Under the pieces are notes generated by a model. That model saw nothing but the letters and a program-made list of their open reading frames with translations. It was not told where the DNA came from and searched no databases. Shown here one piece after another: positions 3,816 to 39,759 of a DNA stretch of 51,810 nucleotides; the first letter of the stretch is position 1; each line of letters opens with the position of its first letter. The stretch covers positions 1 to 51,810 of the forward strand of contig CAXGQC010000001.1 in NCBI GenBank assembly GCA_964011795.1, written 5' to 3'. Position numbers and translations under genes: made by a program. Source of the stretch: an uncultured bacterium (GTDB taxonomy: Bacteria; Chloroflexota; Dehalococcoidia; UBA2979).

Positions 3816-6215
3816 TCAGTCAGACGGTGGGATTTCTCCAATCACCCCGTCTCGACGAAGTGTCTCCAATGTCTCACTATCCATCCCAAGCTCACCACCA
3901 AGTATCTCGTTGTTATGTTGACCAAGGGTCGGTGCAGTGCGGCGATAGGTCACCGGAGTTAATTCCAGGCGAATGGCATTCCCCGGGTAGCGGCGGAGAC
4001 CTACATCTGGATGAGGCAGCTCAGCCCAGAAGTCCCGCTCGGCGAGCTGTCTATCCTCAACGAGGTCACGTGCGTCGGAGACCACCGCTGCTATTATCCC
4101 TGCTGCCTGTAACCGCGCCATCAAAGAGTGGGGGCTGAAAGAGCGGGTGTAGTTAGCGATAAGAGTATCAAGTTCTTCGTGTCGAGCATGCCGGTCCTCG
4201 CGGGTCAGTGCCGTAAGTTCGGAGTCTAAATCTGCAAGCGTCGCGAGCGCACGCCACTCCTCATTCGAAGTTACTGATATAGCAATCCAGCGGTCATCCC
4301 CGGCACACGGGTACAGCCCTTGAGGCGCGTTGAATGGATCTCGATTACCCATTCGTTCGCGATTTCCCCCCCTGACCTGTGCCCCTAGAAGCTCCTCACC
4401 GACAAACGAACCCATAGCCTCGATCATTGCTATTTCTATCGAACGTCCAGCGTGATTTGGGTCAGCCTCCCTGTCTCTAAGTGCGATTAGCAGAGCCGAA
4501 ACTGAGTTCATTCCAGCAACGGGATCTGGCCACGCAATGCCTGATCGATAGGGGCCGGTGTCGAGATAACCCATCATCGATGACAGTCCAGCACCAGCCT
4601 CGATCAGCGGACCCAGTGCAGTTCGCTCACTATCAGGGCCAGTACTGCCATAACCAGGCATCGCCGCATAGATAATCGACGGGTTGAGTATTTTCAGCTG
4701 CTCGAAATCAAAGCCAAGTTGAGGCATGACGCGAGGGCTGAAATTCTCGATCACTATGTCTGCCTCAGCGACCAATTCTGCAAATAGCCCGCGGCCACGT
4801 TCATCGCGAAAGTTAAGAGTGACCGAGCGACGGTTGCGGTGTAGCTTGTTGAAGCCACCAAAGCGGTTCCATGGTCGCTCGCCAATCTCATTTTCCGGGT
4901 AGAGATGACTGACGAAGGCAGCTGAATCTGGCACGTCCCGAGGTCCTCTGTTGAAAATCGCTTCAATCGAAATCACGTCAGCACCGAGGTCACCAAGCAT
5001 CCGGCCAGCCCACGGCCCTGCCCAAACACGGGTGAGGTCCAGAATGCGTATCCCTTCTAAAGGGCCATCTGCCGGCAGTGCCTCGTGTTTTCCAGCGTGC
5101 ACGTCGCTGAAGTCAGACCAACTGATACTTTCATCAGGTGTCGATGGTGGCCGTGGGTCAGGATCACGGTCACTGATCCAGAAGGGACCACGCGGGATCT
5201 GCAGTGGGGGACTACCATTGATTTCACGCCAATAGTCGCGAAATGAGAGCTGAGGGTCATCCAGGAGCTGGAGCATTGTCGGGACCGGTCCAACCGGCGC
5301 AAAAACACTACGACCGATAGCGATGATTTCCTCGGCTGTATGTTCCATCAGCCATGGAATAAATGCTTCATCAAACTCGTCCTTGTGGGCCCCTCGCGCG
5401 TAGTCATCCTTGAAGCGTGGATCTTCTGCTATTTCGGTCAGACCTGCGAGGGTGAGGAAATCCATAAGCTTCACACCAGAGGCAAGGCTGAGCTGTACAT
5501 ACCCATCACTACATGGATATACCCCTACAGGATGCCATGACCCTGGTTGGCGATTGCCTTCGCGCTTGAGGATGTGGGCGCCGTGTGTCCACATCGTCGT
5601 TGTATGTTGATGGAGCGTCGCCGATCCTTCGAAATGTGAAATCTCGACGATCTGCCCCCGCCCGGTGAGATCTTGCACACGTAGTGCCGCCATCGTCCCT
5701 ATAAAACCATGGGTACCAGCTTGGTAAGCCATGTGCAGGCCAGGCCGTCGAATAGGCTCACGTGAGGGTTCTCCGTTCGGGTAGAGTTGTCCACCAATCG
5801 CCTCATCAGTAAATAAATTCGAACGGTAATTAGAGTAGGGACCAGAACTTCCGAAAGGAGAAATACGAGCACTAACCAGTCGCATATTATTCGCAATATC
5901 AACACGAGAGATCAGTGGTTCTGGGGAAGAACTTTCAATCACTGCATCCGCCTCGACCAACAGTGACATCAACCCCGCATGGTCATTCTGATCAACGAAT
6001 ATCGATTGTTTTGAAGTATTGAGATAAGCCCAGGTGGTACCTACTACGTCACCGTTGGGTAGCGTCCATGGTTCGCCCTCGGTACGCAACGGATCACCAT
6101 CAAGTGGCTCTACCTTGATCACTGTCGCCCCATGATCCGCAAACATTTTGGCCGTGTACGCGCCAGCCGCAGAACCAGCAATTTCAACGATACGTAAGTC
6201 CTCAAACTGTTTCAT
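3816..6215 (-). CDS. two-domain family III (CaiB/BaiF) CoA-transferase fusion, 799 aa
   Basis: Two full family III domains. The N-domain has LRIVEIAGSAAGAYTAKMFADHGATVIKVEP...LNTSKQSI. The C-domain starts about aa 386 with IRILDLTRVWAGPWAGRMLGDLGADVISIE...PWNRFGGFNKLHRNRRSVTLN. Confidence 0.9.
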   Translation of the reverse strand: MKQFEDLRIVEIAGSAAGAYTAKMFADHGATVIKVEPLDGDPLRTEGEPWTLPNGDVVGTTWAYLNTSKQSIFVDQNDHAGLMSLLVEADAVIESSSPEPLISRVDIANNMRLVSARISPFGSSGPYSNYRSNLFTDEAIGGQLYPNGEPSREPIRRPGLHMAYQAGTHGFIGTMAALRVQDLTGRGQIVEISHFEGSATLHQHTTTMWTHGAHILKREGNRQPGSWHPVGVYPCSDGYVQLSLASGVKLMDFLTLAGLTEIAEDPRFKDDYARGAHKDEFDEAFIPWLMEHTAEEIIAIGRSVFAPVGPVPTMLQLLDDPQLSFRDYWREINGSPPLQIPRGPFWISDRDPDPRPPSTPDESISWSDFSDVHAGKHEALPADGPLEGIRILDLTRVWAGPWAGRMLGDLGADVISIEAIFNRGPRDVPDSAAFVSHLYPENEIGERPWNRFGGFNKLHRNRRSVTLNFRDERGRGLFAELVAEADIVIENFSPRVMPQLGFDFEQLKILNPSIIYAAMPGYGSTGPDSERTALGPLIEAGAGLSSMMGYLDTGPYRSGIAWPDPVAGMNSVSALLIALRDREADPNHAGRSIEIAMIEAMGSFVGEELLGAQVRGGNRERMGNRDPFNAPQGLYPCAGDDRWIAISVTSNEEWRALATLADLDSELTALTREDRHARHEELDTLIANYTRSFSPHSLMARLQAAGIIAAVVSDARDLVEDRQLAERDFWAELPHPDVGLRRYPGNAIRLELTPVTYRRTAPTLGQHNNEILGGELGMDSETLETLRRDGVIGEIPPSD

Positions 6216-24613: not shown

Positions 24614-25828
24614 ATGGAAACAGTTGGGCCATTAGCGGGACTACGTGTCCTCGAAATCGGAGACTTTATATCGGTCGGCTATGCGGGCAAGTTACTCGCT
24701 GATCTTGGTGCCGATGTTATAAAAATTGAAGACCCTATCGATGGCGATTCTGTTCGCGGTCATGGACCATTTCCAGATGATATTGTGCACCTTGAAAAAA
24801 GTGGACTACATCTTTTCCTCAATACGAATAAGAAAAGTCTGACACTTGACTATATGTCCGTCAAAGGGAGACAGATACTAGATAAGCTCATACCGCACAC
24901 AGACCTGATCATCAGCAATAATACTCATCAGGAGATACAGGATTACTCCCTCGACTATGCGTCACTGTCGCGAAACAACCCGCAACTGAGCGTCAGTTCT
25001 ATCACTGTCTTTGGATACGACACGCCCTATAGGGACTGGCTTGGCACCGCGCTGACTGCTACAGCTGCTTCGGGAGCTCCAACGAAAATAGGACATCCCG
25101 AAAAAGCTCCCTTATGGCTCCCTTACTGCGCGGCAGACTTTCATGGTGGGGTGCACGGGGCTATCGCGGCTTTATTGGCATTGAGGATGGGGAAAATATC
25201 TGGTCAGGGCCATCACGCGTGGATCTCTACTGTCGAAGTCATCGCAAGTTACTTAAATGGCTCTGGCGTGCCGCACTTCGTCTTCAATGGTGGACTGGCA
25301 TCCCGTGACGGTACGCACCGGAGTGGATTCTACCCGTGGCAGGTTGTACCGGCCGCTGACGGTTACATGGAAGTAATCACTATGGTTGATGATCAGTGGA
25401 ACCGATTTACCAAACTGATGGGAAATCCAGACTGGGCAAAAGACGAGCGTCTTCGAGACCGCTGGACATCGTTTGAATGGCATGAAGAGCTAGACGCATA
25501 TTGGCACCCTTGGCTGAAAGAAAGAACGCGTGAAGAATTATTTGAAATTTTCTCGGAGCATAGAATCCCATTCCAGCCGGTTAATCGCATCGATGAGGTA
25601 GTAGCGAGTGAGCACCTTGAAACGCGTGATTTCTGGCAGACGGTCGAGCACCCCGTGATGGGAACATACACAACACTTGGGGCGCCCTATAAATTCTCAG
25701 AAACACCATGGCACATATATCGACCAGCGCCTCTATTAGGGCAGCACAACCAAGAAATTCTTACGAATCTAGTGGGTCTATCTGAATACGAACAGGAGAG
25801 ATTAAGAGACAGTGGAGTAATCGTATGA
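24614..25828 (+). CDS. family III CoA-transferase (alpha-type of pair 1)
   Basis: Contains LRVLEIGDFISVGYAGKLLADLGADVIKIEDP and LNTNKKSLTLD. Confidence 0.9.
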   Translation: METVGPLAGLRVLEIGDFISVGYAGKLLADLGADVIKIEDPIDGDSVRGHGPFPDDIVHLEKSGLHLFLNTNKKSLTLDYMSVKGRQILDKLIPHTDLIISNNTHQEIQDYSLDYASLSRNNPQLSVSSITVFGYDTPYRDWLGTALTATAASGAPTKIGHPEKAPLWLPYCAADFHGGVHGAIAALLALRMGKISGQGHHAWISTVEVIASYLNGSGVPHFVFNGGLASRDGTHRSGFYPWQVVPAADGYMEVITMVDDQWNRFTKLMGNPDWAKDERLRDRWTSFEWHEELDAYWHPWLKERTREELFEIFSEHRIPFQPVNRIDEVVASEHLETRDFWQTVEHPVMGTYTTLGAPYKFSETPWHIYRPAPLLGQHNQEILTNLVGLSEYEQERLRDSGVIV

Positions 25829-31929: not shown

Positions 31930-34900
31930 CTACCAAGCGTCGATGAACGGTCGTTTCTTGCCTGATCTCACCGGTGGTGACTTTGCAGCCTTAAGCGTTC
32001 CGGCAATCCACGCTCTAGATTCAGATGGGTCAATTGTGTCATCGAAACCAAAGTTCATGCCAGTATTTAATGCTTTGCCACGCTCATACGCGCGAGCCAC
32101 CATCGCCTCATATTTTTCGAGTCGCTCTACAGGGTCTTCAATCGAGGCAAGTTCATCGCGATATCCTAGCTTTACCGACCCTTCCAAACCCATGCCACCA
32201 AATTCCCCGGTTGGCCACGACACAGTAAATTGAGGCTGTCGATAATTGCCACCAGTCATAGCTATCGCACCGAGTCCATAGGCTTTCCGCAAAATAATTG
32301 ACATGAAAGTTGTCTCAATATTTGCTCCATGCAGGAATAGACGGTTCGCGTGGCGCACCAGAGCTGTCTTTTCTACTTCTGGGCCGACCATGATTCCAGG
32401 AGTATCAACCAAAGTGAGTAACGGAAGATCAAACGCATCACAAAGCTGCATAAATCGAGCCGCCTTGTCAGCACCATCTGAGTCAATAGCGCCGCCAAGA
32501 TGGCCAGGATTGTTGGCGATAATCCCCAAACTTTTCCCTTCCACTCGTACCAGGGCCGTGACCATTCCAATTCCAAAGTCAGGACGTATTTCAAGAATCG
32601 AATCCACATCTGCAAGCGTATGAATCACGTCCCGAACGTTGTATACACGCAACCTATTCTCCGGAACAATCTGGCGCATTTCTCGTTGATCAGGAGCCTC
32701 CCAATCATTAATTGGCCCCTGGAAGTAAGACAGGTATTTCTTAGCTACTGTGACTGCTTCTTCCTCGTCTTTAACAGATATATCTACTACGCCGTTAGGT
32801 ATTTGTATTTCCATTGGCCCTATATCTTCAGGAGCAAAAATGCCTAGGCCACCCCCTTCGATCATTGCTGGACCACCCATACCGATATTTGATCCTTCTG
32901 TGGCGATAATTACATCACAGCAGGCAAGTAACGAAGCATTCCCTGCAAAACAACGCCCAGTCGTGATCCCAACCATCGGAACAAGGCCACTCAAAGTGGA
33001 AAAAGAAGCAAAGGTAGAACTACCACCAGCTGCGTGTAGACCGTCATCGCCAGGACGACCACCGCCACCTTCGGCGAATAAGACAAGAGGTAGTCTGGAA
33101 TTTCGAGCGACCTCAATCATACGGTCTGTTTTTTGATGATTTCTATTCCCTTGTGTACCTGCCAGCACCATATAGTCATATGCGATGGTCGCGACCATAC
33201 TTTCAGGATCGGAAAATAGATCTCCATTCACACTTCCGATACCGGTGATCATTCCGTCACGGGGAGTCTTTGCAATCAACTCGTCTAGGCTACGTCGTGA
33301 GAATTGGTTAGCGAGGACCAAAGGTCCGTACTCCAAAAATGTTCCCGTATCAAACAAATCTTCAACATTTTCCTGAACTGTCCTCAGTAGTCGAGCATGA
33401 CGTTTGGACACTGCCTCTTCTCTGTTCGCATCCAGTGCCGCTGCTCGACGCGTCAAAATTTCTTCGAGATCCGGACGTATAAAATCCAGATCGATAGAAC
33501 TCTCTCCTTCAATCAAACCGCCAATAACCTCGTGCTCTTCAATAATCATCAGCGCATGATTCTCCCAAAGAGTATCTCCACGACCCACGTTTATAGCACT
33601 TATCGAACCACTCATATGAGCTCGTATCTCATGTTGCATCTTCATCGATTCCATCACTGCGAGGAGTTGTCCAGCCTGCACTTCCTGGCCAACAGACACC
33701 TCAATTGATACGACCGTACCTTGCAGAGGTGATCTTACCGATCCTGGAAGGTCACCCTGTCCAGTACGATCTTCGAGACTTGATGTGTCCTGGCCTCGAC
33801 TGGCTTGCATCCCGTATTCCAACACAGCCAACGGGTCGTCAGAATCGATTGACGCTCCAGCTTGCTCACTTAGCTCGCCTCTCTGAAACGGAGTTGAGTC
33901 CGTGAGTTCTTGTGCTAGCTGGACGAGTTCGGCGGCCTCCAAATCGACGAAACGCGTATGTATCTCTCCGCTCAAAAATGAGGGATGGACCAATAGAGAC
34001 CGCAAAAAGGAAATATTAGTATCGACACCTTCGACATCGAACTCAGCGAGCGCAGTTTCAACTCGTTTCACAGTCGCATCGAAATCGTCTGAACTGGAGT
34101 ATCCAATTACTTTGGCTAACAGTGAGTCAAAACTTGTGGCTGTCTGGTACCCGTTATAGCCGAATGTATCAGTCCGTACTCCTCTACCTGATGGTGGGTT
34201 AAATACAGATAATGTTCCAGCAGAGGGAATTACACTACCATCCTCATTGATCTTCTCCATGTTCACTCTCGCCTGTATGGCGTAACCCCTAGCCGGAACG
34301 ATCTGTTCCTGGCGTAGCCCGAGTGAGTCGAGACTTGCACCTGAAGCGATCTGTAACTGAGTCTGTACTAAGTCAATTCCGGTGACTTCCTCAGTGACTG
34401 TATGCTCCACCTGTAGTCTTGGATTCACCTCAATGAAAAAGAACTCTTCCGAATTTTCTTGGTGTGTCGAAACTAAAAATTCGACCGTGCCCAAATTTTC
34501 GTAACTTGCGGCCCTCCCAAGTGTCACAGCTGCGTCAAGTAATGCGTCACGAGAAGTCGTGGACAAAAAGGGCGCAGGGGCGATCTCAAGGATTTTTTGA
34601 TGCCGCCTTTGCACCGAGCAGTCTCGCTCCCAGAAATGAGATATCGACCCCGCTGAGTCTCCCGCTACCTGCACTTCGATATGACGAACGTTGGGGATAT
34701 ATCTCTCAATATAGAGATCTCCATTTCCAAATGATGCTGCGGCTTCTGCCTGTGCCCCTCGAAAAGCCTGCTCAACATCACTGTCCTTATCAAGCATACG
34801 GACCCCGCGTCCACCTCCACCGTGGACTGCTTTGAGGATTGCCGACTGGCTCTCATCTAATGATCCGAGAAATTCAGTCGCCTCTGCCGCCGTTACCGGA

Positions 34901-35316
34901 TGGTCTAGACCTGGCAAAACAGGTATTCCGTGCTGAACCGCAAGCTTTCTTGCCGACACCTTGTCACCAAATACATCCAGTGAAGACGGCGCTGGACCTA
35001 CAAATTTCATCCCAGCTGCTTCACACTTCGTAGCAAATTCTGAATTCTCACTGAGAAACCCATATCCTGGGTGGACTGCATCACATCCACTCTGCAGACC
35101 AACTTGCACTATTTGATCTACATCCAAATAAGGTAGCGCGCCCTGGCCCTCAAGTAGCAGCGCTTCATCAGCCCTCTGCCAATGGATCGAATTAATGTCT
35201 GCTTCAGAATATATCGAGCAAGTCTGCACTCCTAATTCCTTGGCAGCTCTGATAATACGGACAGCTATTTCACCACGATTGGCTATTAGTAATTTCTGCA
35301 CTTCAATATCCCCCAT
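31930..35316 (-). CDS. single-chain biotin-dependent acyl-CoA carboxylase (BC - linker - BCCP - carboxyltransferase)
   Basis: The N-terminal biotin carboxylase has KLLIANRGEIAVRIIRAAKELG and an ATP-grasp region. The biotinyl motif is AVMESMKMQHEI. The C-terminal ~530 aa form an acyl-CoA carboxyltransferase (PccB/AccD5-like) domain. The ATG at 35316 is preferred over the TTG at 35322. Confidence 0.9.
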   Translation of the reverse strand: MGDIEVQKLLIANRGEIAVRIIRAAKELGVQTCSIYSEADINSIHWQRADEALLLEGQGALPYLDVDQIVQVGLQSGCDAVHPGYGFLSENSEFATKCEAAGMKFVGPAPSSLDVFGDKVSARKLAVQHGIPVLPGLDHPVTAAEATEFLGSLDESQSAILKAVHGGGGRGVRMLDKDSDVEQAFRGAQAEAAASFGNGDLYIERYIPNVRHIEVQVAGDSAGSISHFWERDCSVQRRHQKILEIAPAPFLSTTSRDALLDAAVTLGRAASYENLGTVEFLVSTHQENSEEFFFIEVNPRLQVEHTVTEEVTGIDLVQTQLQIASGASLDSLGLRQEQIVPARGYAIQARVNMEKINEDGSVIPSAGTLSVFNPPSGRGVRTDTFGYNGYQTATSFDSLLAKVIGYSSSDDFDATVKRVETALAEFDVEGVDTNISFLRSLLVHPSFLSGEIHTRFVDLEAAELVQLAQELTDSTPFQRGELSEQAGASIDSDDPLAVLEYGMQASRGQDTSSLEDRTGQGDLPGSVRSPLQGTVVSIEVSVGQEVQAGQLLAVMESMKMQHEIRAHMSGSISAINVGRGDTLWENHALMIIEEHEVIGGLIEGESSIDLDFIRPDLEEILTRRAAALDANREEAVSKRHARLLRTVQENVEDLFDTGTFLEYGPLVLANQFSRRSLDELIAKTPRDGMITGIGSVNGDLFSDPESMVATIAYDYMVLAGTQGNRNHQKTDRMIEVARNSRLPLVLFAEGGGGRPGDDGLHAAGGSSTFASFSTLSGLVPMVGITTGRCFAGNASLLACCDVIIATEGSNIGMGGPAMIEGGGLGIFAPEDIGPMEIQIPNGVVDISVKDEEEAVTVAKKYLSYFQGPINDWEAPDQREMRQIVPENRLRVYNVRDVIHTLADVDSILEIRPDFGIGMVTALVRVEGKSLGIIANNPGHLGGAIDSDGADKAARFMQLCDAFDLPLLTLVDTPGIMVGPEVEKTALVRHANRLFLHGANIETTFMSIILRKAYGLGAIAMTGGNYRQPQFTVSWPTGEFGGMGLEGSVKLGYRDELASIEDPVERLEKYEAMVARAYERGKALNTGMNFGFDDTIDPSESRAWIAGTLKAAKSPPVRSGKKRPFIDAW

Positions 35317-35458
35317 CAACAACGAATATATGAACTATGTTGCACCGATGCTGAACACTTATCTCACATAGTGGAGTCTTTAGCAAATCTTCTCGGAAAC
35401 AGTTACACTCGCACGACAATAATCCAATAAAGTAATGGAAACACGGTGAGGTTGACTA

Positions 35459-36319
35459 ATGACTAACACTATCGACAGTATTCAGGATATTTCGAACGGA
35501 GATGTAATCGCCGAGTTAGACGATGAAGGTGTGCTCCTCACCACGTTCAATCGGCCTGAACAGATGAATGCTCTAAATCAAACACTTGGACTTGGACTTG
35601 GAGCTGCACTCAAGTTTGCTTCAGAAGAGGACTCAGTAAGAGCCATGGTGATCACGGGAAGTGGCCGAGCATTTTGTGCTGGCGCAGAAATTAGTGGAGA
35701 CAGAACTCCAGCCGAATCAGGTGAAGCACCAAGTGATGCGGCACCAACCGTTAGTCGCCATGAAAGACTTGTTCATCACAACCGTTCTGTACAGACAGCA
35801 CTAGGATTTATAAAGTCTGACGTCCCGATAATAGGCGCAATTAATGGCGCGACTGCTGGAGCAGGCTTTGGTATGGCAATGGCCTGCGATGTTCGCATTG
35901 CAGGAAAGTCGGCTCGTATGGGACCCATTTTTTTCAAACGCGGGATAGTGTCTGACTATGGAGTCCTTTGGTTTCTACCCAGAGTCGTCGGGAGTGCCAA
36001 GGCGTTCGAGGTGATGTATCACAGTGACGTCATGCCTTCAGAAAAGCTCTTAGAAATGGGACTAGTGAACCGTGTCGTCGAAGATGATGACCTCCTTACT
36101 GAGGCCTTAGCATATGCCAGAAAGGTAGCAGCAGGACCTCCATTAGCTGCATCAGAAATAAGGAGACTCCTGCATTCTTCACTAGATGCCACCGGGTCAG
36201 CCGAGCAATGGCTAATCCAAGAATGGAACGCTCAGGCAAGCCTACTAAAAACAACTGATGCCAAAGAAGGATTTCGCTCATTTGTAGAGAGGCGAGACCC
36301 TGACTTTAGGGGTTACTAG
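35459..36319 (+). CDS. enoyl-CoA hydratase/isomerase family protein
   Basis: Contains VITGSGRAFCAGAEI, GAINGATAGAGFGMAMACD and a C-terminal FVERRDPDF. Confidence 0.9.
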   Translation: MTNTIDSIQDISNGDVIAELDDEGVLLTTFNRPEQMNALNQTLGLGLGAALKFASEEDSVRAMVITGSGRAFCAGAEISGDRTPAESGEAPSDAAPTVSRHERLVHHNRSVQTALGFIKSDVPIIGAINGATAGAGFGMAMACDVRIAGKSARMGPIFFKRGIVSDYGVLWFLPRVVGSAKAFEVMYHSDVMPSEKLLEMGLVNRVVEDDDLLTEALAYARKVAAGPPLAASEIRRLLHSSLDATGSAEQWLIQEWNAQASLLKTTDAKEGFRSFVERRDPDFRGY

Positions 36320-36359: not shown

Positions 36360-37568
36360 ATGAGCAGACAACTATTCGAAGGTATCAAAGTCTTAGAACT
36401 GGGGACCATGGTTGGAGTTCCCTATTCTGGCAAACTCTTTGCAGACTACGGGGCAGAAGTGGTTAAGATAGAGCCACCAGAGGGCGATCCCTCCCGCTTA
36501 GAAGGGCCATTTCTCAACGACATCCCAGATAAAGAAGCCTCAGCTCTTTTTCTGCATCTGAATACGAGCAAAAGGTCCATAACATGCGATCTCTTTTCAT
36601 CAGCTGGGCGAGACATAGTCCGCACCTTAATTGAGCAACATGACATAGTGATTGAAAATTTTCCGCCGGGAACTCTCGATTCTTTAGGTTTGGGTTTCCA
36701 AGCGTTCGCGAAGGAAAAGCCTGACCTTGTATTAGGATCATTGACACCCTTCGGACAAACCGGTCCATGGAAGGATTTCAAGGGTTCAGAACTCGTCCTA
36801 CAAGCTATGGCCGGACCAATGCATATAAACGGGCACAGTTCACGTGAACCAATAAAACTCGGTGGGAATCTAGCTCACTATCACGCTGGATTAGCTTTGA
36901 CATATGCTTGCGCCCTGGCTCGACTAAGGGTCGAACGAGGAGGCTCGGGTGAGCATATAGACCAATCAGTATATGAAGCACAAGCCGGCTTCCGTGACAG
37001 AAGAACTCCGGGTCTCACGGCAGCATCTTACAGCGGCAAAAGTAGTAAAAGAGGAGGTCTTTCATCGCGGGTTGCCTCAGGACCACGACCGGCAAGTGAT
37101 GGGTATGCGAATATTTTCGCTGGGGCGAGTAAACACGTTCCTGAATTCTTAAGACTCATTGGCCGACCTGATCTGGCTGAACAACCAGATGCAGAAAAAC
37201 CATTTACTCAAATGGGAGAACAGTTCATAGAGGAACTTGAAGGTGCCTATGGAATTTGGCTCATTGAACGGACAAAGCGCGAGGCCGTTGCAGCGACCCA
37301 AGCAATCGGAATCCTGGGTGGAGCTGTTTTAACTATTGAGGATCTTCTCGATGATCCGCATTACCAAGAGCGTGACGTATGGGAAACCGTTGACCATCCT
37401 GTTACGGGTTCTATGCGTTATCCAGGAAGACATTTCGTGACGTCAGGCGCCACCAGACAACAAATGAACCGCGCACCACTACTCGGTGAACACACTGTGG
37501 AAATTCTCTCAAATATCGGATATTCGAATTCAGACTTAGTTCAGCTACGTCGGGCGAAGGTGATTTAG
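36360..37568 (+). CDS. family III CoA-transferase (alpha-type of pair 2)
   Basis: Contains IKVLELGTMVGVPYSGKLFADYGAEVVKIEPPEGDP and LNTSKRSI. Closely resembles the N-domain of the 799-aa fusion. Confidence 0.9.
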   Translation: MSRQLFEGIKVLELGTMVGVPYSGKLFADYGAEVVKIEPPEGDPSRLEGPFLNDIPDKEASALFLHLNTSKRSITCDLFSSAGRDIVRTLIEQHDIVIENFPPGTLDSLGLGFQAFAKEKPDLVLGSLTPFGQTGPWKDFKGSELVLQAMAGPMHINGHSSREPIKLGGNLAHYHAGLALTYACALARLRVERGGSGEHIDQSVYEAQAGFRDRRTPGLTAASYSGKSSKRGGLSSRVASGPRPASDGYANIFAGASKHVPEFLRLIGRPDLAEQPDAEKPFTQMGEQFIEELEGAYGIWLIERTKREAVAATQAIGILGGAVLTIEDLLDDPHYQERDVWETVDHPVTGSMRYPGRHFVTSGATRQQMNRAPLLGEHTVEILSNIGYSNSDLVQLRRAKVI

Positions 37569-37569
37569 T

Positions 37570-38922
37570 ATGAGCGACTCACAAAGCTCCCGAATGCTTC
37601 CTCTTGACGGCGTAAAAGTTGCTGCAGTGACAGTTGTATGGGCGGGACCACACTGCACTCAGGTCTTGGCTGAGTGGGGGGCCGAGGTCATTAGAGTAGA
37701 GCCAATTGACGCTATCCAGCCCTACTCGAGAGGGGCCGAGCGGATTGCGACGAAGGAGCAGGTAATCGAGAGCGTAAAGAATGGACTAACTCTGTTCGCT
37801 TATCCCGACTATGACCCTGGTCAAGAACCATGGAACAGGAATCCTGGTTTCAACTCTCATAGCCGTAATAAAAAGTCTATGGCCTGCAACATCATGACCC
37901 CCGAAGGGAAAATAGCTTTCTTGAAATTAATCAAAGAAGTCGACGTGTTAGTCGAAAACAATGTCCCTACAACTATTGAAAAGGCTGGGATCACCTACGA
38001 AACTCTCAAGGAAATAAATCCTCGTTTGATCATGCTTCGCATGCCCGCTTACGGGCTTTCAGGTCCGTACAAAGGGTACAGAGCATTCGGCACGCATGTA
38101 GAGGCAATGATTGGTCACCACTACATTCGTGGCTACCCCGACGGAACCCCTGATGAAACGGGCGAGGCTTTCACCGCCGATGCCTTCGCTGGACTTCTGG
38201 GAGCTACAGCGATCACTGCTGCTCTGCGCTATCGAGATACCACAGGTGAAGGTCAGCAAATTGAGATGCCACTTGCAGAAGGATTTCTACCAAATCTTGG
38301 GGAATTCATACTTGACTTTGAAATGAATGGTCGAGTCGCAGGACCTCAAGGAAATACACATCACTCGCACGCGCCTCACGGAGTCTTCCCAACATCAGGG
38401 GATGATCAATGGATAGCAATTGACGTATCAGAAGATGAAGAATGGTTTTCGCTTTGCGAGGTATTAGGTGCCGATACTCTCGCTAATGATGCTCGATTCC
38501 ACACCCAGTTATCAAGATTTCAAAATCGCGCGGTCTTGCATGATGAGCTGAACAAATACACAATCAAGCACCAAAAGTTCGACCTTTTTATAGAACTGCA
38601 GCGGTCTGGAGTATGTGCAGGGCCGGTCACAGATGATATGGAACTCCTCGAATCTCCCCAGTTGATCGATCGTGGTTTCTTTGAGGAACTCGAATCACCA
38701 GTCATCGGTAAACACAGATATCCGGGGATCATGACCAAGTGGGTTGGCACACCAAACTCAATCCGCACTCCTCCACCAAGACTGGGGGAGCACACCGAGG
38801 AAATATATAAACAGTTACTGGGCTACAGTGATGAGGAATATAACAAGCTACTCGAGGAGGGTCAGGTCGGTGACAGGTATCCAGACCATCTCCTACCGGA
38901 CTTCCTCAAAACGTCAAAATAA
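37570..38922 (+). CDS. family III CoA-transferase (beta-type of pair 2)
   Basis: Contains VTVVWAGPHCTQVLAEWGAEVIRVEP and PWNRNPGFNSHSRNKKSM. Resembles the C-domain of the fusion. Starts 1 nt after the upstream stop. Confidence 0.9.
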   Translation: MSDSQSSRMLPLDGVKVAAVTVVWAGPHCTQVLAEWGAEVIRVEPIDAIQPYSRGAERIATKEQVIESVKNGLTLFAYPDYDPGQEPWNRNPGFNSHSRNKKSMACNIMTPEGKIAFLKLIKEVDVLVENNVPTTIEKAGITYETLKEINPRLIMLRMPAYGLSGPYKGYRAFGTHVEAMIGHHYIRGYPDGTPDETGEAFTADAFAGLLGATAITAALRYRDTTGEGQQIEMPLAEGFLPNLGEFILDFEMNGRVAGPQGNTHHSHAPHGVFPTSGDDQWIAIDVSEDEEWFSLCEVLGADTLANDARFHTQLSRFQNRAVLHDELNKYTIKHQKFDLFIELQRSGVCAGPVTDDMELLESPQLIDRGFFEELESPVIGKHRYPGIMTKWVGTPNSIRTPPPRLGEHTEEIYKQLLGYSDEEYNKLLEEGQVGDRYPDHLLPDFLKTSK

Positions 38923-38937
38923 TCAGAAACTAGTAAT

Positions 38938-39759
38938 TTGCTGACGGAAATAATTGAACCCTTGCTTCTCATTTTCATTGGTGCAGCCATCGGTACATAT
39001 GCTGGTGCGATCGGGGCAGGGGGCGGGTTCCTGATCGCACCTTTTCTACTGTTCCGATATCCTACTGCGACTGCAGCGGAGATAACTGCCGCCTCGCTCT
39101 TATATGTAGTTGTCAATTCCGCTCTTCAGGTTTTAGTCGCATTCAAGGAAAATCGAATTGATGGCCGTCTGGTAGTGCTGCTTGCTGCGATAGGGGTACC
39201 AGCTGCGGTTGTGGGAGGAGCTACAACAGGATTAGTTCCCCGAGACTACTTCGCAGTTGGATTTGGCGTCTTCTTGGTACTAATCGGCATATACGTAATT
39301 GTCCGACCAACGGCAGTCCCGGAACCCACAACTGGCGACGGATGGCAAAGGAATATCAAAGACAGAAATGGGACTATCTTTCGGTTTAGGATTCCTCTAA
39401 TTCGTTCGGCATTAGCTCAGGCAGCTACCGCATTTTTCTCAGCCCTTGCGGGTATCGGCGGCGGGCCAATAGGAATGCCTGTAATGACTCGCGTGCAGAA
39501 AGTGCCTCATGAAATCGCGGTCCCAAGCATGCATCTACTAATATTTATCCAATCAATCTCTGTCACAGGCCTGCATATAGTGAATGGGGTAAACGGATCT
39601 CCTCTTGGTGATCTCCCATGGTTAGCAGCAGGCGTAATAATATCGGCTCCTCTAGCGGCCAAATTCCGTCGGATCAGTGGCGAGGGGAAATTAATGAGAG
39701 CTCTTGCGATTGGACTTATTGCCATCGGTGCAAGTGCGGTCTTCGATATTTTCAGATAA
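38938..39759 (+). CDS. TauE/SafE (TSUP, DUF81) family anion exporter
   Basis: Multi-TM protein with two GAIGAGGG / LAGIGGGP repeats typical of TSUP. TTG start, no nearby ATG. Confidence 0.75.
   Translation: MLTEIIEPLLLIFIGAAIGTYAGAIGAGGGFLIAPFLLFRYPTATAAEITAASLLYVVVNSALQVLVAFKENRIDGRLVVLLAAIGVPAAVVGGATTGLVPRDYFAVGFGVFLVLIGIYVIVRPTAVPEPTTGDGWQRNIKDRNGTIFRFRIPLIRSALAQAATAFFSALAGIGGGPIGMPVMTRVQKVPHEIAVPSMHLLIFIQSISVTGLHIVNGVNGSPLGDLPWLAAGVIISAPLAAKFRRISGEGKLMRALAIGLIAIGASAVFDIFR

Follow-up and report, generated by a model that had tools for sequence, protein, structure and literature searches.

Background

Most family III CoA-transferases are homodimers. The large domain of each chain holds a nucleophilic Asp, which attacks the donor acyl-CoA; the mixed anhydride formed first gives way to an aspartyl-CoA thioester, from which CoA is transferred to the acceptor acid. 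The dimer is interlocked, and the large domain of one chain meets the small domain of its partner to form each active site (PMC9196870). The function of the conserved Asp, the covalent nucleophile in this family, has been summarised elsewhere (PMC9196870, PMC6006322). Two described systems come closest to the locus analysed here, a pair of adjacent genes (hereafter alpha and beta) at positions 36360–38922 of a 51,810-nt stretch of DNA (the window; contig CAXGQC010000001.1 of assembly GCA_964011795.1) from an uncultured member of the Dehalococcoidia. One is BbsEF, the benzylsuccinate CoA-transferase of an anaerobic toluene degrader, composed of two paralogous family III subunits of ~400 aa that are encoded side by side. 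The other is the two-domain class of Dong et al. 2018 (PMC6006322), in which family III domains occur in tandem and the Asp resides in the C-terminal domain; the catalytic Asp430 of PtmU4, conserved in its homologues, lies in that domain, and mutation of Asp430 lowers the activity 125–400-fold (PMC6006322), and DddD contains two CaiB domains (PMC5395668, PMC6006322).

Active-site residues of alpha and beta

We propose that alpha and beta are probably the two types of subunit of a BbsE/BbsF-like heteromeric enzyme of CoA-transferase family III, with a single canonical active site per dimer. The features on which this proposal rests, including those of an alpha-beta fusion protein encoded elsewhere in the window, are as follows:

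36360..37568, + strand: alpha gene; 402 aa, a family III CoA-transferase paralogue of the BbsE type that lacks the nucleophilic Asp
37570..38922, + strand: beta gene; 450 aa, a BbsF-type family III CoA-transferase paralogue with the catalytic Asp
36876..36878, + strand: codon CAC of His173 in alpha, the residue opposite the catalytic Asp of the family
38179..38181, + strand: codon GAT of Asp204 in beta, the predicted nucleophile for covalent catalysis by the complex
3816..6215, − strand: alpha-beta fusion of 799 aa, with the codons of Ala163 (N-domain) at 5727–5729 and of Asp564 (C-domain) at 4524–4526

Both proteins belong to the PF02515 family (CaiB/BaiF/Frc) by full-length profile and by fold. 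The Pfam profile matches residues 7–379 of alpha (E 1.5e-83, 281 bits) and residues 12–409 of beta (E 1.9e-91, 307 bits), with a cut-off of 23.3 bits and with the matches spanning profile positions 1–366 or 2–366. A profile constructed from alpha and 33 of its homologues (34 sequences) was searched against the sequences of the PDB. Position 173, which is Gln or His in the profile and His in alpha, was placed opposite the Asp residue of 4ed9 (FADIFTG), of human SUGCT (9br6, MTDLATG) and of E. coli YfdW (1pt5, ALGDSNTG; chain index 190, which becomes Asp169 after subtraction of a 21-residue tag), and all three reference regions were aligned with the top posterior confidence and with no gap nearby. 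The same register was obtained from pairwise HMMER alignments, from a MAFFT alignment of the six family III domains of the window, from an HMM alignment of the paralogues in the genome, and from a MAFFT L-INS-i alignment that included the PDB sequences.

The original prediction, made by eye from the window sequence, had assigned an Asp to beta, to the proteins encoded at 24614 and 25825 (the two members of another gene pair, hereafter pair 1) and to the C-domain of the fusion, a His to alpha and an Ala to the N-domain of the fusion. The MAFFT and HMM alignments of the six domains agree on every one of these assignments: Asp204 in beta, Asp175 in 24614, Asp in 25825, Asp564 in the fusion C-domain, His173 in alpha and Ala163 in the fusion N-domain. 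Beta carries the nucleophilic Asp of family III and alpha has His173 in its place; judged by its sequence, alpha belongs to the family in structure but is not a canonical catalyst. In fold, length and D-x-x-x-G motif the pair resembles the homodimeric enzymes Frc, YfdW, CaiB, SUGCT and 4ed9; beta conforms to this motif throughout, and alpha in all but the Asp.

In the mechanism that we propose, beta would supply the nucleophile Asp204, and alpha, with His173, would be unable to form the anhydride and thioester intermediates. Since family III sites are shared between two chains, the linker and the small domain of alpha should line the beta-centred site, and alpha would in this way complete the interlocked dimer. 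The R212-D213-R214-R215 block and R231, invariant in the alpha clade, are candidates for residues lining this site. With Asp204 in beta and His173 in alpha, each alpha-beta dimer would possess one canonical and one degenerate active site, in contrast to the two identical sites per dimer of the homodimeric enzymes. Both the assembly of the heterodimer and the inactivity of the alpha site are our deductions from homology.

Relationship to BbsEF and to the two-domain class

Searches of the PDB with the sequence of alpha identified 4ed9 as the first match and chain A of BbsEF (9fn0_A) as the second, far above chain B, and the best match of beta was 9fn0_B (3.4e-53). The 799-aa fusion contains two PF02515 domains, of which the N-terminal half matches 9fn0_A and the C-terminal half 9fn0_B. 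In a maximum-likelihood tree of 55 domains from the source genome and 4 PDB sequences (quick IQ-TREE search with SH-aLRT support, several branches being long), a split with 98% support united 18 Asp-less domains, including chain A of BbsEF, with gene 24614, and alpha was placed inside this group; a clade with 95% support comprised 18 Asp-bearing domains, including chain B of BbsEF, beta, 25825 and, with one exception, the C-domains of the fusions. The catalytic position is occupied by Tyr171 in chain A (A-P-D-N-Q-A-Y-R-M-A-E) and by Asp178 in chain B (N-Y-T-D-H-V-M; number obtained by counting), the latter in the same column as Asp204 of beta in the MAFFT L-INS-i alignment. The PDB entry 9fol bears the title 'BbsEF, D178-CoA adduct + succinate', and as D178 is the residue of chain B, the covalent intermediate sits, by this title, on the beta-type chain. 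Searches of the accessible literature found no paper describing the BbsEF structures.

The one-active-site design is already known from BbsEF, and the window pair is a split form of the BbsEF type: its genes are adjacent and co-inherited, each protein falls in the lineage of the matching BbsEF chain, and the catalytic Asp is present in one subunit type only. The original prediction that both this pair and the fusion have one canonical site per dimer is supported by homology, namely by the pattern of Asp residues, the linkage of the genes, the tree and the 9fol entry.

The pair also differs from BbsEF in several respects. The identity is only ~24–30%, and the host is a marine, aerobic-type member of the SAR202 Dehalococcoidia as opposed to an anaerobic toluene degrader. 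The neighbouring genes encode a crotonase, a TauE permease, an M24 peptidase and a divergent biotin carboxylase, with no other bbs-like genes nearby. Beta possesses a ~30-residue insertion that chain B does not have, and at the site of the Tyr of chain A, alpha has His or Gln. The two enzymes surely differ in substrate as well. BbsEF proper acts on benzylsuccinate and is encoded in the bbs beta-oxidation operon, and neither trait is found for the window pair; the missing operon context together with the 24–30% identity indicates that alpha-beta is not an orthologue of BbsEF.

The insertion of beta (residues ~46–93, IDAIQPYSRGAE...EPWNRNPGF) lies past the first strand-helix unit and is common to the beta-type proteins, in which Trp88-Asn89-Arg90 is invariant; it is missing from the one-domain enzymes as well as from chain B. 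The equivalent segment of the fusion (residues 421–452) was modelled with pLDDT <50.

The fusion shares with the two-domain class both the tandem arrangement of family III domains and the Asp in the C-terminal domain, and differs in this from the window pair, which represents a split, two-gene form. As to the chemistry, PtmU4 carries out sulfur transfer and DddD an additional lyase step, and the data for the window point to neither. The N-terminal domain of DddD, too, presumably lacks the Asp. No sequence named as DddD was found: there was no match to an NCBIfam DddD model and no two-domain chain in the PDB, and matches on plasmids were annotated 'CoA transferase'. These full-length two-domain fusions (30–34% identity to the 799-aa protein) are carried by numerous large plasmids from Actinobacteria and Proteobacteria, e.g. 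in Rhodococcus (NZ_CP083975.1, 24558–26921), Bosea (NZ_CP102773.1) and Variovorax (NZ_LR594668.1); 402 plasmid records cover at least 80% of the 799-aa query and carry no annotation other than 'CoA transferase'.

Conservation of the catalytic position

The best 120 homologues of alpha (45–99% identity) and 113 homologues of beta were compared. Position 173 of alpha is occupied by Gln (56 sequences), His (50), Ala (7), Leu (3), Asn (2), Glu (1) or Ser (1), and by Asp in none of the 120, compared with Asp at the position of Asp204 in all 113 homologues of beta. This supports, on grounds of homology, the suggestion that alpha is a non-catalytic or differently catalytic partner. As for the His substitution itself, what proves to be conserved is the absence of Asp (120 of 120), though the residue drifts: the entropy is 1.6 bits at position 173 of alpha versus 0.1–0.6 bits for the Y-H-A-G that follows directly. 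Within this sample, the loss of Asp is a trait of the whole alpha clade rather than a chance substitution. The mean column entropy is lower for beta (1.19 bits) than for alpha (1.37 bits), and the mean identity to the window pair is higher for beta (52% versus 47%), as is the identity in 27 of 29 loci in which both partners occur, all of them from other genomes. By these sequence measures beta is the more constrained partner, and the two diverge in step, with beta changing at the slower rate.

Pair 1 of the window differs from the remaining pairs of this kind in that both members exhibit an Asp. Its first gene (24614–25828) falls in the alpha lineage of the tree despite Asp175, and its 118 homologues have Gln (54), Asp (32), Glu (18), Leu (12) or His (2) at the site. 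An Asp that only 32 of 118 homologues retain is not under catalytic constraint, and pair 1 is therefore probably a one-site heteromer as well. Both the lineage of 24614 and this low retention weaken the alternative interpretation of pair 1 as an enzyme with two sites.

Linkage of alpha and beta

The order of the two genes was analysed in 33 loci, of which 3 were fetched through alpha homologues and 30 were retrieved by searching 201 genomes of the class. In 31 of them an Asp-less alpha-type domain is directly followed by an Asp-bearing beta-type domain, the two being fused in frame in four cases. The other two loci contain an alpha-type gene (~42% identity; 1489–2688 of locus L024 from genome G144, and 1360–2685 of locus L033 from genome G090) with Gln at the site and the motif LGGSVVQYYAGV, and no beta-type gene within 1.5 kb downstream. 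The products of these two genes may be orphan partner subunits, or their partners may be encoded elsewhere. Those homologues that carry a name of origin come from Dehalococcoidia/Chloroflexota metagenome bins, and one homologue of beta was labelled 'benzylsuccinate CoA-transferase BbsF subunit' by JGI.

Family III domains in the source genome

A large family of CaiB/BaiF paralogues has been described in SAR202, with some CoA-transferases that match DddD best (Landry et al. 2017, PMC5395668). In the source assembly (1.68 Mb in 209 contigs, 77% complete) we identified 47 open reading frames (ORFs) with family III domains. All 11 two-domain fusions (~800–860 aa; e.g. C7 16374–18830, C10 19855–22443, C10 25798–28290 and C13 13763–16189, the C numbers denoting contigs) combine an N-domain lacking the Asp with a C-domain that has it, the residues of the N-domains being Ala, His, Ser, Ser, His, Tyr, Glu, Ser, Tyr, Gly and Glu. 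Six adjacent pairs have one Asp-less member, namely the alpha-beta pair analysed here and pairs on contigs C7, C10, C69, C76 and C139. The order is reversed, with the Asp-bearing gene first, in the split pairs at C10 16798/18087 and C69 3487/4786. Altogether, 17 of the 18 Asp-less domains of the genome have a fused or adjacent Asp-bearing partner. Stand-alone genes all encode the Asp, except for C51 8037–9347 (Phe), which was considered as an orphan alpha and rejected: the ORF reaches the end of its 9349-base contig, so this 18th Asp-less domain cannot be judged. One beta-type gene (C12 6943–8232) stands alone.

One of the fusions, C9 12695–15271 (N-domain Ser), is peculiar in that both of its domains are found among the one-domain, homodimer-type enzymes in the tree. 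The same asymmetry may have arisen independently in this gene; the two branches are long and their placement is unsure.

Structure models

The AlphaFold model of the alpha monomer has a mean pLDDT of 81, and a Foldseek search with it identified 9fn0_A as the first match (TM 0.81), the family III structures scoring between 0.7 and 0.8. The model is disordered (pLDDT <50) at the segments that form the dimer interface (residues 131–168 and 210–235). Residues 121–160 of the fusion N-domain, roughly equivalent to residues 131–168 of alpha, have pLDDT values of 79–88, and a linker segment of the fusion (residues 203–226) falls below 50. The model of the entire fusion, built with just seven aligned sequences, is a compact two-domain body with pTM 0.86, and it fits an intramolecular pseudo-heterodimer.

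Alternative explanations

Several observations weigh against a one-site heterodimer with a silent alpha. Assembly and single-site activity are both extrapolated from BbsEF at ~24–30% identity, and the silence of chain A in BbsEF is itself our own reading of its sequence and of a PDB title. The two loci with alpha-type genes and no adjacent beta suggest that alpha does not need its partner gene next to it, or is able to function by itself. Y174, H175, A176 and G177 are well conserved, which a pure structural scaffold might not need, and the consensus of the alpha clade keeps the N-terminal A-G-P (G-V-P in the window alpha) and G-D-x-x-R. Such conservation would be compatible with the binding of a ligand at the degenerate site. 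The alpha site could have a second job, be it non-covalent binding of a CoA ester or acceptor in regulation or channelling, or other chemistry such as a DddD-like lyase step; we consider this unlikely, for all that the motif K-L-G-G-N-V-A-[QH]-Y-H-A-G shows strong conservation on both sides of the variable position (0.1–0.6 bits for its Y-H-A-G) and that the block of R-D-R-R at 212–215 is invariant beside the retained A-G-P and G-D-x-x-R. Position 173 drifts through Gln, His, Ala, Leu, Asn, Glu and Ser within a single orthologous clade, and lineage-wide the site is also Tyr, Phe, Ile or Gly; no alpha-specific acidic or otherwise plausible catalytic residue is conserved across the lineage; and several positions conserved in the beta-type and one-domain enzymes, e.g. 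the Asn of E-N-F, are degenerate in the alpha-type proteins. The conserved neighbours may just hold the N-terminus of the helix and the dimer interface in shape. In its narrower form, that of a conserved second ligand site in which [QH]-Y-H-A-G and an intact Rossmann-type CoA-binding face would bind a CoA ester or acceptor non-covalently, the idea is distinctly doubtful.

It is highly improbable that alpha and beta each form homodimers and are merely co-transcribed, beta2 being an ordinary transferase and alpha2 having another function. Homodimers are the rule in family III, and the solitary alpha-type genes of two loci and the solitary beta-type gene on C12 would suit this explanation; but the two lineages are fused, always in the order alpha then beta, in 11 genes of the source genome and in 4 of the fetched loci, and the fusion is modelled as one compact body. 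Moreover, BbsEF was deposited with both types of chain in one entry, the alpha monomer model is disordered exactly at the interface segments, and alpha and beta co-diverge. It is hardly credible, finally, that the absence of the Asp is an alignment artefact or that the nucleophile has moved, with a different Asp or Glu of alpha occupying the catalytic position in the folded protein. Chain A of BbsEF does have an Asp four residues upstream (A-P-D-N-Q-A-Y) and a few alpha-type domains have Glu at the site itself; yet alpha has Gly four residues upstream (K-L-G-G-N), and pairwise HMMER, the profile comparison with the PDB and MAFFT L-INS-i all agree on an ungapped register to D-x-x-x-G. The PDB includes an Asp169-to-Glu variant of formyl-CoA transferase (1vgr), which we take to be nearly inactive. 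Among the alpha homologues, the eight positions to each side of the site include no conserved acidic residue, and the lack of any alpha-specific conserved acidic residue argues against a relocated nucleophile. We have therefore rejected a hidden Asp or Glu in alpha, and with it the misplaced indel that the original prediction had named as its own possible undoing: the profile alignment sets His173 against Asp169 of YfdW and requires no gap in alpha.

Genomic neighbourhood

The proposed one-site heterodimer of alpha and beta is encoded amid the following features:

37556..37563, + strand: Shine-Dalgarno-like sequence GAAGGTGA, read from the sequence, within the 3' end of alpha and 6 nt before the ATG of beta
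35459..36319, + strand: enoyl-CoA hydratase (crotonase, ECH), adjoining alpha upstream; PF00378, E 4.7e-50
38938..39759, + strand: anion permease of the TauE/SafE family, adjoining beta downstream; PF01925, E 9.7e-34; followed by an M24 peptidase gene

The junction of the pair reads GTG ATT TAG T ATG, i.e. a single nucleotide separates the stop codon of alpha from the start codon of beta, just as originally predicted, and translation of the two genes is presumably coupled. No terminator-like sites were found on the + strand between the crotonase, alpha, beta and the downstream genes. The crotonase is the probable next enzyme to act on the CoA ester, and we infer that alpha-beta shares a pathway with it. 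In the wider neighbourhood, the order ECH-alpha-beta-M24 was found in locus L001 and alpha-beta-TauE-M24 in L002, and the other loci showed no linkage to ECH, TauE or M24. A conserved operon that would name the substrate was considered and rejected, because this linkage is confined to the two closest orthologues, L001 and L002, which leaves an assignment to a pathway unjustified. None of the NCBIfam equivalog models reaches its cut-off for alpha or beta. A link to organosulfonates via TauE and a nearby sulfatase would be speculation and is not claimed here.

Upstream of the crotonase and divergent from the crotonase-alpha-beta genes, positions 31930–35322 (− strand) encode a single chain of 1130 aa, in which a biotin carboxylase, a biotinyl carrier domain and a carboxyltransferase are combined. 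All of its NCBIfam matches are below the equivalog cut-offs.

Conclusions

The mechanism proposed for alpha-beta adds nothing beyond BbsEF and the two-domain class; the consequences concern annotation and the biology of the SAR202 group. If the doubtful second ligand site of alpha were real, the alpha-beta transferases of SAR202 would gain a built-in regulatory, channelling or second-chemistry function, and this would help to explain the heavy duplication of alpha-beta modules over homodimers in a specialist for refractory organic acids. On the one-site heterodimer that we favour, alpha and beta should be annotated as one enzyme, with the catalytic subunit beta and its partner alpha, and not as two independent "CaiB-like CoA-transferases", and the characterisation of such enzymes requires co-expression of both. 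The expansion of CoA-transferase paralogues in SAR202 would then consist, in the source genome, mostly of alpha-beta modules (its 47 genes include 11 fusions and 7 split pairs), which would roughly halve the number of distinct transferase activities inferred from counts of domains.

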